64,000 bases of DNA, from the IMG/VR virus record IMGVR_UViG_3300048839_001249, positions 28,689 through 92,688 of that record. The stretch is one strand, 5' to 3'. Numbering within the stretch: position 1 is the stretch's first letter; the number at the start of each line of letters is the position of its first letter. This document shows, one piece after another, positions 46,623 to 50,858 of this stretch. The notes beneath the pieces are model-generated. The model searched no databases and was not told where the DNA came from. It was given only the letters and a program-made list of their open reading frames with translations. This stretch comes from a virus. A program made the translations under genes and the position numbers.

Positions 46623-47258
46623 TTAACTGTTTGTGAGACTTATTTCCATTAGATTATTCTTTATTCTTTGGTTTATCATTTCCAAATCATTTACAGTTTT
46701 AATTTTTATTTTAAACTGATATGGAATAAAGCAATAATTTTGAATTTTATTTGTCATAATTACATCATAATAATTTCTAACATCATAAAGCAAACCTTTA
46801 TTTATTATCCAACTAGTTAATTTTTTATATTCGAAAATTTCACTATTAACTAGTATTTTAATATGGTCAGAACTAATGAAAAAATTTTCACCTGACAATA
46901 ATTTTGCCATTATTATTGATGATGAGTTTATTGCTGCAAGTAAAACTATTTCATTATTAACTGATATATATCCATATCCATATTGAATTGTAATATTGTC
47001 CGGTGAATAAAAAATTGTGGTTGGACTACACCATTTATCATTATAATTCCTTAATGCTGATATTTTTTTTGTTGATGTTCTTATAGAATTAGCTATTATT
47101 TTAGATGAATAATATAACTTTTCATTTATTACCATTCCTTCATTTAATGCATATAATGGTATTAATTCATTATCACTTGAACAGCAGATATTACCAACAT
47201 CATAATGATATTTTATGGGATTAAATTGTATGGGATTAAATTGTATGTAATTTATCAT
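46623..47258 (-). CDS. AT-rich hypothetical protein coupled to the E1 gene
   Basis: ATGA overlap with the ThiF stop; 211 aa. Confidence 0.6.
   Translation of the reverse strand: MINYIQFNPIQFNPIKYHYDVGNICCSSDNELIPLYALNEGMVINEKLYYSSKIIANSIRTSTKKISALRNYNDKWCSPTTIFYSPDNITIQYGYGYISVNNEIVLLAAINSSSIIMAKLLSGENFFISSDHIKILVNSEIFEYKKLTSWIINKGLLYDVRNYYDVIMTNKIQNYCFIPYQFKIKIKTVNDLEMINQRIKNNLMEISLTNS
47214..47247. repeat. 15-bp tandem duplication TATGGGATTAAATTG
   Basis: Two exact copies; encode IQFNP-IQFNP in frame. Confidence 0.9.
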
Positions 47259-47935
47259 AGTACAATATCAGTTTTTAATAATGGTACAAAATATTCATAG
47301 TAAAATGGTACAGTACGATATTTTTCTCCTGTTATGATATTAGCTGCATGATTTGTTAAAAATGCTGTCATTAAGCTTGCTATCATTGCTGCTGTATGTG
47401 ATGTTTGTGTTGTTGTGCAACTTAGATTTTCAACATCTTCATCACCAAATAAGAAATTTTCCTCATAGCGTTTCATTATTTCAGGATCAGTAGTAACACA
47501 AAATATTTGAATTTGCTCAAAAAGTAATCTTCCATCAATTAATAATGCATTTTGATCATTTTGATTATTTTCTTTCCATCTATGATACATTATTCTTCTT
47601 GCTTCCATATTATCAAATCCTGATAACATAATAGAAGATGTTATTGATGTTGTATCATACTTGGCATTTACTCCTTGTATATTAATTTTTGAAAAATCAG
47701 AAACATTGTTTTTTAATGCTACTATTTTTCTATCACCTACTTGTGACCATCTAACAAATTGTCCACCAACATTGTGTTCTTCAAAAATATCATCATCAAA
47801 TACTATACATACTATTCCTATTCTCGAAAGAAGTAATGTAAGCCATGATGAAATTCCACCTGCACCACCCACAATAATCTTTTTTCCTTTTAAATATGGA
47901 TACCATATTGCATCTTTAAATCTATCATTGTACAT
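47255..47935 (-). CDS. ThiF/MoeB/E1-like adenylyltransferase
   Basis: GGAGGISSW nucleotide loop, FDDD..EEHN..GQ, K, GFDNMEAR, DGR; candidate catalytic Cys in NLSCTTTQT. Confidence 0.9.
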   Translation of the reverse strand: MYNDRFKDAIWYPYLKGKKIIVGGAGGISSWLTLLLSRIGIVCIVFDDDIFEEHNVGGQFVRWSQVGDRKIVALKNNVSDFSKINIQGVNAKYDTTSITSSIMLSGFDNMEARRIMYHRWKENNQNDQNALLIDGRLLFEQIQIFCVTTDPEIMKRYEENFLFGDEDVENLSCTTTQTSHTAAMIASLMTAFLTNHAANIITGEKYRTVPFYYEYFVPLLKTDIVL

Positions 47936-49007
47936 ACTTTTTCGTTTTAAAGTTAGCTTTTACAAAATCATTAATCAACTTTTCCATTATTTTTACTATT
48001 GGGTATTTTATGGATTTAAGTGCTTTTAAATATTCATTTATTACTTCAATTGGGTCAATTGGTTCTCCAGGAACATAGTAATTTAATATGTCTTCTGCAA
48101 GATTGTTAACAGCTAGAGTCATTAATTGAATGGCTTCTTCTCTATTATCATGATTTTGTAATATTGAAAATGCTTGATCTGCTGTATGAACCATAGCATC
48201 AATTTCCATAATACTTTCTGCTTCCAGATTATAACATATAAAGTCATCAATATTAAGTTTATCTGAATCTTTACTTGTAATTTTTTTGTTTTGATTTTTT
48301 GGAAATACAAATTCATCAGATACCGAAGAATTTTTTCCAAAACCTATTACATTATTGTGAGATGTTTGTACTGCAACAACTTTTGTCTTTTTATTTATTT
48401 TTTCATATCTATCTGAGAATTGTGATCCAACTTCATGTTGAATATCAGCGACAAACTTGCAGTCATAAGTACATACACTTAGTATTTGGTTTTTTATTTT
48501 AAGGTTGTAATATTCACCATTACCCTTTCTTGCTTTGATTGTAGACATTGGTTCTATCGTAAATGCAATTTTACCTTTCATTTCCAGAAATGTATTTACA
48601 ATTACTGAAAGATAAAAATTATGATGTTCAGCATTTTCTACAAGCTCATCTAAGTCTGTACCTGAAAAGAATACACTCATCAGATTGTGGCTATGAATAT
48701 GTCCCATTTTCCAACTCAGTGAGTCAGGATTATTCATTCTGAATTCAACAATAGATTTATCCAGTTTATAGTCTGTTGCTGCACCTGTTCCTATATCCAT
48801 TAAAAAGATATATTGTAATACTATTAACATATTTTTAGGTTTATCTATATCACCATCAACGGTGTAAAATAATATACCTGACCATTCTTTTTGTGGAACT
48901 TTTGAAACAAGATATTTTACTTGTTCTGAAAATCTCTTGGTTATAGAAACTTTTACCTGACTTTCAAGAGGGATTATTTTTAGATTTTTTTGTTGCATAA
49001 TATTCAA
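47925..49007 (-). CDS. JAB/MPN+ (JAMM) metallo-isopeptidase with C-terminal extension
   Basis: EWSG glutamate plus HSH-x7-S-x2-D (HSHNLMSVFFSGTD). Confidence 0.9.
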   Translation of the reverse strand: MNIMQQKNLKIIPLESQVKVSITKRFSEQVKYLVSKVPQKEWSGILFYTVDGDIDKPKNMLIVLQYIFLMDIGTGAATDYKLDKSIVEFRMNNPDSLSWKMGHIHSHNLMSVFFSGTDLDELVENAEHHNFYLSVIVNTFLEMKGKIAFTIEPMSTIKARKGNGEYYNLKIKNQILSVCTYDCKFVADIQHEVGSQFSDRYEKINKKTKVVAVQTSHNNVIGFGKNSSVSDEFVFPKNQNKKITSKDSDKLNIDDFICYNLEAESIMEIDAMVHTADQAFSILQNHDNREEAIQLMTLAVNNLAEDILNYYVPGEPIDPIEVINEYLKALKSIKYPIVKIMEKLINDFVKANFKTKKYVQ

Positions 49008-50070
49008 GCATTTTAAAATTTAATATTCCGTTTAATGTTTCAATAATAATAGTTTTTACTAATGGATGTATAGTTAATACTGGATTTTCTATCAATTTTC
49101 CATATACAATTGTTTGCAATTCTTTATTGTTAAACATTATTTCATATTTATGAGTATATGTTTTGTCGTTGGTTATTACATTAATGTCATAGTATTTACC
49201 TTTACTTTCTAAGTATGAATAATCAGAAAAATGATAGCTTAAAAAATTAATAAGATATTCATCTTCTATAATTTCATATCTCATTTTTTCATAAGAAAAT
49301 TCAAAATTGATGTTTTCATCTGAGATTAAAGTAAATTTAAATAAATCTATACATTTAAGTTGTATATTTCTTTCATTTATAGAATTCAATATTACTTCGT
49401 TTCCATAATCTTTTATAGTCTCAATTTTTATATATGGAACTCCTTCAAGTGATTCCCATGATAAGTAAGGTTCAATTTGAAGTAAAAGTAATGTAAGCAA
49501 TTCATTACTAAATAAATTTGGAATTTTCAACTTGTTTACTAATGTTGAAAGTTCGTCATTACCAATACAAAAATTAGCAGAAAATAATGTTTGTATAATT
49601 GATAAACTTTGTACTGGTAAATGACTGTGTATATAACCATTTACAAATTCTCCATTACTAAATGTTGTTCTTATTCCTTTTATTTTTTGAATTGAAAGTC
49701 CGTTTTTATGTTCAAAATTTATTATTACATATAGGTCTTTTATTTCATTTTTATCATTATTTGTATTTGTTATAGTGATGTTATCATATTTAATGATTAG
49801 TCTTAATGAAAACTGTATGTGAAATTTCATATGATATTCATATACTATGTATTCATAAGCATCATGTAAATCATTATTCTTACAATTATGTGAATATAAT
49901 TGAATTTCAAATTGATTATCATCAAATACTTTACTTGCAATATTAAATATTGTTTCCCAATCATCAGCCATACTTTTTTCACATCTATTTTTCAAATATA
50001 AATATTCAATGGTTTGTCTGTTGATTATATTTTCCTTGTTTATTTTTTTAATAAATTCATATACATACAT
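48964..50070 (-). CDS. Prokaryotic E2-like (UBC-fold) protein
   Basis: GYIHSHLP...NFCIG with Cys at 49567-49569, resembling the E2 HPN...C arrangement; lies between the Ubl and JAB genes. Confidence 0.6.
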   Translation of the reverse strand: MYVYEFIKKINKENIINRQTIEYLYLKNRCEKSMADDWETIFNIASKVFDDNQFEIQLYSHNCKNNDLHDAYEYIVYEYHMKFHIQFSLRLIIKYDNITITNTNNDKNEIKDLYVIINFEHKNGLSIQKIKGIRTTFSNGEFVNGYIHSHLPVQSLSIIQTLFSANFCIGNDELSTLVNKLKIPNLFSNELLTLLLLQIEPYLSWESLEGVPYIKIETIKDYGNEVILNSINERNIQLKCIDLFKFTLISDENINFEFSYEKMRYEIIEDEYLINFLSYHFSDYSYLESKGKYYDINVITNDKTYTHKYEIMFNNKELQTIVYGKLIENPVLTIHPLVKTIIIETLNGILNFKMLEYYATKKSKNNPS

Positions 50071-50135: not shown

Positions 50136-50858
50136 TTACAGACCAAACTCTCTTTTGATTCTTTCAGCATCATCTTTGAGTTTCTTCTTTTGTTCAGCAG
50201 TAATAATTGCTGATTCTTGGATTGCTGGTTCACCGGGATGTTTTGCTATGAAATCATTGAGTAATTTTTCTGCATCATTTAAGAATGATATTGCAGTTTT
50301 GATTGGTTCAAGGTCAATTGGCTCTGCTGTTGTTTTTTCAACAGCTTTTTCAATAACTTCGTCAATAACCTCTTCAGTTACTTCCTCAGTTACTTCTTCT
50401 TTGACCTTTTTAGGTTTTTCAGTTTTCTTTGGCTTTTCTTCTGACTTTTTGGTTTCTGATTTACCAGTCATTTTGTTGAGCCATGCTTTGAGCAAATTTT
50501 TCATTTCATCTGTGGATTTGTTTGTGTAATTTTTGTCTTTATTGAAGTGCTCAGCAGCTTCTTTGTTTTCAGCAATAGTTTCTTTAATTGCACTTCTCAA
50601 ATCCTTGTAGCTCATTTTGTCGACATCCATTCCACTTTTTACCTTGATAGGCATCAAAAAAAGTGTAAATTTGTCACTTGGAAGTTCAGCATTTGCAACT
50701 TCAAGTGTATGTCTGTTTTCACCAATAACAGCTTTCATGTTCTTGTGACTTACTCCATTTTCAGTAAGTACACCTTGGAGTTCTCCCCATGTTTTAGCAT
50801 TGCTACTGATGATTTTACCATCTTGTCCTGATGTTGAATAAATTGTGATTGTTCTCAT
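50136..50858 (-). CDS. Ubiquitin-like (beta-grasp) domain, residues 1-76 ending KVKSG, fused to a helical/charged C-terminal extension
   Basis: Strand-strand-helix (TWGELQGVL)-strand pattern, LP..FTLFL terminal strand, Gly76 at 50633-50631; operon with E2, JAB and E1. Confidence 0.7.
   Translation of the reverse strand: MRTITIYSTSGQDGKIISSNAKTWGELQGVLTENGVSHKNMKAVIGENRHTLEVANAELPSDKFTLFLMPIKVKSGMDVDKMSYKDLRSAIKETIAENKEAAEHFNKDKNYTNKSTDEMKNLLKAWLNKMTGKSETKKSEEKPKKTEKPKKVKEEVTEEVTEEVIDEVIEKAVEKTTAEPIDLEPIKTAISFLNDAEKLLNDFIAKHPGEPAIQESAIITAEQKKKLKDDAERIKREFGL

Follow-up and report, generated by a model that had tools for sequence, protein, structure and literature searches.

The window analysed here is a 64,000-nucleotide stretch of a crAss-like phage (positions 28,689 to 92,688 of IMG/VR virus record IMGVR_UViG_3300048839_001249). 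We posit, on comparative and structural evidence and with a close biochemical precedent, that a 240-amino acid (aa) protein encoded in its replication/recombination module is probably the precursor of a phage ubiquitin-like modifier (Ubl), cleavable after Gly76. The gene is the first of a four-gene cassette that also encodes an E2-like protein, a JAB metallopeptidase and a minimal E1-like adenylating enzyme. Trimming after Gly76 is the best reading because the N-terminal domain has a predicted Ubl fold, Gly76 is invariant, relatives ending one to three residues past this glycine occur together with the enzymes, and the JAB carries a complete JAMM motif. An earlier reading of the sequence alone (the original prediction) had likened the protein to ubiquitin-extension fusions; the Ubl fold, the invariant glycine, the short natural forms and the intact JAMM motif all speak for a cleavable precursor, but the HeH/SAP-like nature suggested for its tail is not supported. 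As that reading also had it, Gly76 is followed in frame, within the 240-aa open reading frame (ORF), by Met77 and a 164-aa tail with a helical module and a K/E-rich stretch; C-terminal helices complete it. The helical MSYKDL module starts at Met82, five residues past Met77. The precursor gene and its parts are as follows:

50136..50858, minus strand: Ubl precursor gene, 240 aa (Ubl domain plus 164-aa tail), from the ORF list
50631..50858, minus strand: predicted Ubl beta-grasp domain, residues 1-76, ending K72-V-K74-S-G76 (AlphaFold2, VIA-align, Foldseek)
50628..50633, minus strand: predicted processing site, Gly76-Met77 (G76 invariance; the lengths of relatives diverge exactly here)
50466..50615, minus strand: predicted three-helix tail module, residues 82-131, SYKELR...HFxxGKNYTxKST...LL (model, conservation)
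50376..50465, minus strand: K/E/P-rich linker predicted to be disordered, residues 132-161 (model confidence, pLDDT, <50 at 133-161)
50139..50375, minus strand: predicted C-terminal helices, residues 162-240, end motif L227..A231..(I/L)234..F238 (model, alignment)

The junction reads ...FTLFLMPIKVKSG76-M77DVDKM82SYKDLRSAIKE...NYTNKSTDEMKNLL..., followed by the K/E-rich stretch and the C-terminal helices, with the Gly76 codon (GGA) at 50631-50633 and the Met77 codon (ATG) at 50628-50630 of the minus strand.

Residues 1-75 are modelled as a genuine ubiquitin-type beta-grasp. The AlphaFold2 model of the precursor, built from a 13-sequence alignment, places strands at residues 2-8, 15-19, 41-45 and 64-70 and a helix at residues 24-33 with a predicted local distance difference test score (pLDDT) of about 90, and confidence falls at residues 71-80. 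VIA-align, a structural scan of 48,161 PDB chains that is independent of Foldseek, superposed 66-72 residues (model residues 1 to ~75) with Z scores of 8-9.3 and root-mean-square deviations of 1.8-2.7 Å on matches drawn almost only from the ubiquitin superfamily, including ubiquitin, FAT10, ISG15, MoaD, UBX and DIX. Foldseek searches of the PDB also returned ubiquitin-family matches, with a probability of 1.0 to many ubiquitin chains, and TtuB and MoaD are again among the structural neighbours. Identity to these neighbours is 10-16%, the likeness to ubiquitin being one of fold only, and the precursor has no sequence match in Pfam, NCBIfam or the PDB. Judged by sequence, the domain belongs to an undescribed Ubl family, recorded in the family scan as PHROG 15560 (function unknown). 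Its end, K72-V-K74-S-G76 (family consensus K-T-K-S-G), compares with R72-L-R74-G-G76 in ubiquitin, sharing basic residues at positions 72 and 74 and the same final number. The Ubl-like domain ending at Gly76 in a single-glycine KSG motif, as originally described, is consistent with both the fold found by the two structural searches and the invariance of this glycine.

Searching 1.84 billion cluster representatives with a profile recovered 2136 relatives at E<=1e-3; conservation was counted in an alignment of 156 of them and in an independent alignment of 150 diverse homologues. Gly76 is present in 156/156 homologues and is the sole invariant column of the 150-sequence alignment, where mean column identity is 17%. 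Lys74 is kept in 152 of the 156 sequences, so that the K-x-G boundary, whose invariance the original prediction had put forward as a check, is retained almost throughout; at position 75, 126 sequences have Ser and 29 have Ala. Just past the glycine, residue 77 differs among relatives (A/L/I/V/M) and a third of the 156 sequences have gaps in the four columns that follow it, and the full-length C-termini of the precursors in this alignment show no conserved Gly. The alignments thus indicate that the Gly-ended domain boundary is conserved far beyond chance.

This pattern bears on the alternative that the protein is never cut, being a multidomain protein with a permanent N-terminal Ubl of the kind found in Rad23- or UBX-type adaptors, with the E1, the E2-like protein and the JAB serving something else. 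Such a protein could explain why the tail module is so well kept, with F105, N110 and T112 each in at least 90% of sequences, and why it occurs only fused to the Ubl, and it would suit the weak support for the predicted JAB-Ubl complex described below. However, an uncut adaptor sits poorly with a family whose sole invariant residue is a domain-end glycine and whose members ending one to three residues past that glycine retain the enzymes. It also leaves an E1 that needs a free carboxylate in a cassette with no other candidate substrate, the full-length C-termini not being a conserved Gly, and we regard it as improbable.

The short natural forms come from a survey of 38 IMG/VR phage loci related to the window (denoted by L numbers). 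The Ubl domain was found in 38/38 loci (hidden Markov model (HMM) E 1e-19 to 1e-34), and the sequence following the KSG end falls into six classes:

1 residue: L023, L024, L026, L027, L029 and L033
3 residues: L028, L032 and L034
21-23 residues: L022, L025, L030 and L031
59 residues: L035-L039
82-139 residues, acidic and Trp-rich: L016 and L018-L021
111-296 residues, with the window-type helical module

Regardless of tail length, nearly every locus with sufficient flank has the E2-like, JAB and E1 genes behind the Ubl gene in unchanged order; comparison of the loci gave no match to the E2-like homologue at L024 and a weak one at L028. Stop-codon recoding is known in crAss-like phages and was considered as a source of the short forms, but these terminate at TAA or TGA with more in-frame stops behind, which rules it out. 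Since stand-alone forms end one residue past the KSG end at true stop codons, Gly76 is very probably the mature C-terminus of the Ubl, as far as the compared sequences can tell. An E1 requires a free C-terminal carboxylate, and every form carries at least one residue past the glycine; removal of these residues would therefore be required by the pathway. In a maximum-likelihood tree of the E1, tails of 1-3 residues occur in both major clades (100/100 support), which argues that tails were gained or lost repeatedly at this junction, and L025, with a fused 21-residue tail, is sister to L032, which has a 3-residue form. The stand-alone Ubls came from the IMG/VR loci; neither a stand-alone tail nor a stand-alone Ubl turned up when shorter homologues were sought by word-indexed search or when the tail alone (residues 77-240) was the query. 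At two of the loci with 59-residue tails (L035:8713-12939 and L036:8712-12938), the ORF for the JAB has just 123 aa, and a truncated E1 match (164 aa) is found ~3.4 kb downstream of it, while the near-identical L037-L039 keep intact adjacent cassette genes; the sequences suggest that the L035/L036 cassette was split by an insertion.

The precursor gene is followed on the minus strand by the E2-like, JAB and E1 genes (50858 to 50136, 50070 to 48964, 49007 to 47925 and 47935 to 47255), with overlaps:

48964..50070, minus strand: E2-like protein, 368 aa, invariant Cys168/His150/Glu206 (21-sequence alignment, AlphaFold2, VIA-align)
47925..49007, minus strand: JAB/MPN+ metallopeptidase, 360 aa, predicted processing and deconjugating enzyme (invariant JAMM motif)
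47255..47935, minus strand: minimal E1-like adenylating enzyme (ThiF family), 226 aa, invariant Cys173 (Pfam, alignment, profile matches)

The JAB retains E41, H105-x-H107, S115 and D118 in all 21 aligned sequences, which is the full JAMM/MPN+ motif (H-S-H-x7-S-x2-D in the window). It gave a weak match to the PADLOC JAB model (E 0.0034), and its profile matched only designed helical proteins among solved structures, via the C-terminal half. A predicted complex of JAB residues 1-175 with precursor residues 1-100 scored 0.35 (best control 0.01) and was classed as weak support, with at least 55% of contacts in agreement between runs and a partner pLDDT of at least 70. The 0.35 mark was passed by 58/80 solved complexes and by 2/110 mismatched pairs, and among those passing, scores <=0.60 comprise only 7/80 solved complexes plus both mismatches. 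Complexes of JAB proteins with ubiquitin have already been solved, so that the pass may reflect likeness only.

The 368-aa protein between the Ubl and the JAB has no named family match in Pfam or PHROG scans and is probably E2-like, judging from its model. Residues N102, Y146, S149, H150, C168, G170 and E206 are invariant in 21 sequences, and the AlphaFold2 model has a helix at residues 32-48, four long strands, a Y-x-H-S-H loop, an F-C-x-G motif 13-30 residues further on, and helices, which together correspond to UBC topology. The top 50 VIA-align matches are mostly UBC-fold proteins, including the Tsg101 UEV domain (Z 7.0), the Vps23 UEV domain (6.1), E2s (4.7-5.7), RWD domains and Cap2 (5.0). 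Among relatives, E2-like proteins of 347 to 571 aa occur, owing to long unrelated N-terminal extensions (L023:7470-9098, L029:4917-6629, L032:2356-3807), and the longest are found in lineages with an almost tail-less Ubl.

The E1 is assigned to the ThiF family by Pfam (7e-11), and its best named matches are ThiF models. Its invariant features are GxGG, D47/D49, N55, K70, F-D-N-M, D-G-R and a single cysteine, C173, and its profile matches MccB, UBA5, NAE1-UBA3, SAE2, ThiF, UBA1, MoeB and Cap2. Trimming by a JAB is known for the sulfur carriers of the QbsD/QbsE and Mec+/CysO pairs, which raises the alternative that the Ubl is a ThiS/MoaD-type carrier, trimmed by the JAB and converted by the E1 via an acyl-adenylate to a thiocarboxylate for a phage-specific thiolation (e.g. 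of a nucleic acid), with no protein conjugation. The ThiF/MoeB-sized E1 with its ThiF matches, the presence of MoaD and TtuB among the structural neighbours of the Ubl, and the position of the cassette among DNA-metabolism genes are what such a carrier would predict. It would not account for a conserved UBC-like protein with an invariant Cys between the Ubl and the JAB, for a gene order that is that of BilABCD, or for a Ubl ending in K-S/A-G with a single Gly as opposed to the G-G of ThiS/MoaD. Furthermore, a scan of ten neighbouring proteins revealed no rhodanese, cysteine desulfurase or PP-loop sulfurtransferase, and we hold a sulfur-carrier role to be hardly probable.

Structure prediction of residues 77-240, which the original prediction had proposed, gave a three-helix module, a disordered linker and C-terminal helices. 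With a 5-residue variable linker in front, the tail has four parts, the others being the module (residues 82-131), the K/E/P-rich disordered segment (132-161) and the helices running to the C-terminus; AlphaFold2 places helices at residues 84-131 (module pLDDT about 92), disorder at 133-161 and helices at 162-238. In the 156-sequence alignment, the module (HFxxGKNYTxKST) retains F105 in 150, N110 in 141 and T112 in 153 sequences, and the tail end keeps L227 in 124, A231 in 93 and F238 in 90. The 59-aa tails of L035-L039 share this end motif (AAKIKRELGL compared with AERIKREFGL in the window). Lineages with short, acidic or 59-residue tails lack the helical module, and its HMM found only Ubl-fused copies and 0 separate genes in 40 loci. 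Because whole lineages lack a tail, it is accessory and not core, and the comparison of loci portrays it as a conserved, modular and exchangeable lineage-specific appendage.

No family match to the window tail was obtained from Pfam or a tail-only search, the ESM Atlas gave no usable match, and the tail of crAss001 Gp79 likewise has no Pfam match. The suggestion that the tail is a nucleic acid-binding HeH/SAP-like domain draws no support from Pfam, with 0 matches on the tail and SAP matches in the family that are few and sub-threshold. SAP was seen in 3 of the 150 best-matching family members, and the located match (P0029, residues 29-46, 19.2 bits against a cutoff of 23.9) falls within helix 1 of the Ubl, leaving a SAP or HeH assignment of the tail unsupported. 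A single faint Ish1 match (E 0.028) lies inside the tail of one family member. In a 341-aa homologue (L005:6905-8017), the module HMM matches twice, at ORF residues 111-156 and partially at 154-182, which suggests a tandem duplication of the module in this sequence.

In the uncultured gut crAss-like phage cr126_1 (Kolpuevirus hominis, MT774391.1), the tail of a 308-aa homologue (L041:2320-3246) contains a Ribosomal_L12 C-terminal domain (PF00542, 5e-12, residues 158-220, 46.4 bits against a cutoff of 25.9), which follows the helical module and precedes the C-terminal helices. Most lineages with 1-3-residue tails have a 41-51-aa ORF between the Ubl and E2-like genes (L026:1530-1685, L029:4729-4869, L033:4994-5140, L032:2178-2303, L023:7277-7426), which in three cases overlaps the Ubl stop (TAATG), and tail and small ORF are both missing from L024 and L028. 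The small ORFs weakly resemble the fused 21-23-aa tails of L022, L025 and L030 (V-E-x-H-[YM]..[LM]..[KR][LMY]D), being reciprocal best matches among 6041 ORFs at E about 0.75-4, which is not significant. In some relatives, the tail may exist as a separate small ORF. The L12 domain of cr126_1 and the small ORFs of short-tail lineages favour the tail as a separable, functional polypeptide, and the release of a second protein in 1:1 ratio is plausible from these comparisons.

The same observations lend themselves to a different emphasis, namely that the protein is cut at Gly76 but the tail is the active product, with the Ubl as a removable N-terminal chaperone or timer made 1:1, as ubiquitin is for eL40 and eS31. 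Modular tails with distinct domains in different phages, such as the Ribosomal_L12 C-terminal domain of cr126_1, and the 41-51-aa ORFs weakly like fused 21-23-aa tails would be expected of such an arrangement. Against this, L024 and L028, without tail or small ORF, keep the Ubl, the JAB and the E1, from which it follows that the Ubl pathway stands alone; the similarity between tail and small ORF is not statistically significant, and family scans assign no function to the window tail. We therefore consider it unlikely that the tail is the primary product.

The closest precedent for a cleavable precursor is BilABCD (types I and II; Chambers et al., PMC10557695), in which the JAB BilC cuts BilA at a single conserved glycine (Gly97-Ala98), BilA does not react in its full-length form, and the Gly can be followed by as many as nine residues. 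The window cassette shares with it the order Ubl-E2-JAB-E1, a single Gly followed by extra residues, an E2 (in the window a probable one) with a long variable loop ahead of its catalytic or putatively catalytic Cys, and the lack of an E3. It differs in that BilABCD belongs to a bacterial defence island whereas the window cassette, like those of FpV4 and crAss001, lies in a phage replication module; in that the BilABCD E1 is roughly 500 aa with inactive adenylation (IAD), active adenylation (AAD) and cysteine (CYS) domains, whereas the window E1 is 226 aa with a single adenylation domain; and in that the Bil extension is 1-9 residues whereas that of the window is 164 aa, structured and conserved. 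The C-E-H-H motif order of BilB also contrasts with H148, H150, C168 and E206 in the window E2-like protein, with His before Cys; each of these four residues has a conserved counterpart in the E2-like protein, but their different order falls outside the CEHH definition. No Bil family in PADLOC or NCBIfam matched the cassette proteins.

Ubiquitin-extension proteins (UBA52, Ub-eL40; RPS27A, Ub-eS31) and polyubiquitin resemble the precursor in having an N-terminal 76-residue ubiquitin fold with an in-frame second polypeptide and in needing, or for the precursor probably needing, processing at the terminal Gly before E1 activation, and the cr126_1 tail with its bL12 C-terminal domain adds to this likeness. 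In the window, the Ubl is indeed followed in frame by a distinct polypeptide predicted to be folded (module pLDDT about 92 plus C-terminal helices). The differences are a single-Gly K-S-G end as opposed to G-G, a JAB as opposed to a USP/UCH cysteine protease, a window tail that is not a ribosomal protein, and no sequence homology to ubiquitin.

Among phages, the tail assembly protein I (TAPI) of lambda is a Ubl-linker-domain fusion for which processing by the adjacent JAB was predicted (Iyer, Burroughs and Aravind 2006, PMC1779556). The TAPI-TAPK pairs of lambda and T1 share a phage beta-grasp Ubl, a conserved end Gly, a C-terminal fusion and a neighbouring JAB with the window (PMC1779556), but occur in tail-assembly operons without E1 or E2, whereas the window cassette includes an E1 and an E2-like protein and is surrounded by replication genes; the window linker also lacks Gly enrichment, and its C-terminal domain bears no relation to that of TAPI. 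Mobile elements (plasmids and ICEs) carry the class 6 operons of Iyer et al. (2006) and the PRTRC cassettes, which like the window cassette combine a small Ubl with a JAB, an E2-like protein and a minimal ThiF-type E1. The window E1 matches PRTRC_ThiF (TIGR03736) at 7e-9, below cutoff; all matches are below curated cutoffs, the window Ubl, E2-like protein and JAB match no named family, and there is no ParB-related component. The literature searched yielded no paper describing a phage or crAss-like Ubl cassette or its precursor.

The nearest cultured relatives are in the FpV4 group of Flavobacterium psychrophilum phages, with genomes of roughly 90 kb and the same gene order (gp53-gp50). In crAss001, Gp79 (225 aa) shows 29% identity (E 8e-4) to the window protein in an alignment spanning the Ubl, the K-I-K-S-G end and the FGKNFT module, and is followed by Gp78, Gp77 (annotated as a metalloprotease) and Gp76 (annotated as ThiF). 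Homologues of the E1 were found in 79 phage records, among them those of DAC15/17 and PhiCrAssBcn, and are usually annotated as 'thiamine biosynthesis protein'. As their neighbours are a Ubl, a JAB and an E2-like protein, the name 'thiamine biosynthesis protein (ThiF)' given to FpV4 gp50 (L001), crAss001 Gp76 (L040) and the E1 of L041 is probably misleading. In the window, genes for a DNA primase and a uracil-DNA glycosylase lie upstream of the precursor on the same strand, and the cassette is followed by RusA-like and exonuclease VIII-like genes. A 211-aa ORF (46623-47258, minus strand) overlaps the E1 stop (ATGA); it has no detectable homologue in 40 related loci (tblastn) and no family match, and so does not count among the conserved cassette genes.

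Several points weigh against a conjugation pathway built on a trimmed Ubl. The E1 is a single adenylation domain of ThiF/MoeB size, without the inactive adenylation and separate Cys domains of BilD. The structural scores of the E2-like protein are modest (Z <=7.0, below the level that excludes chance; Foldseek E >=0.6), and its profile has no sequence match to any E2 among solved structures. Neither a target nor an E3 is identifiable for the cassette, and the tail module is conserved as strongly as the Ubl, which suits a permanently attached domain equally. We also infer cleavage, adenylation and conjugation alike. Even so, each of the three alternatives set out above is much less likely than a cleavable precursor.

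For this precursor we propose that the JAB would cut the bond after Gly76 to give a 76-residue Ubl ending in K72-x-K74-S-G76, which the minimal E1 would adenylate at Gly76, possibly forming a thioester on Cys173. The Ubl would then be handed to Cys168 of the E2-like protein and on to lysines of phage or host targets, and the JAB probably reverses conjugation too. The 164-residue tail would hold the Ubl inert until processing and, being conserved and structured, is probably also a released or docking polypeptide. More speculatively, Crassvirales and FpV4-like phages may run their own Ubl conjugation in which the JAB frees a tag and an exchangeable cargo 1:1, the two jointly acting on the replication or translation machinery of host or phage, as an independent viral counterpart of ubiquitin-ribosomal protein fusions; this is possible but doubtful. 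The cargo would range from the conserved helical module and the acidic Trp-rich tails to short helices and the ribosomal bL12 C-terminal domain.

Where Ubl conjugation in prokaryotes has been elucidated to date, in Bil and type II CBASS systems, it serves bacteria as a weapon against phages, and here its logic appears to be carried by phages, including crAss001, FpV4 and gut crAss-like lineages; crAss-like phages belong to the most abundant virus group of the human gut. To our knowledge, long structured tag precursors are known for eukaryotic ubiquitin, and prokaryotes offer only extensions of 1-9 residues or the TAPI prediction. The invariant K-S-G junction provides a precise site for testing. 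Owing to K74, trypsin would leave a Ser-Gly remnant (+144.05 Da, computed) on modified lysines, so that proteomics on two phage-host pairs that can be cultured could locate the targets. If these targets are host defence or translation factors, the cassette would represent a new class of phage counter-measure.

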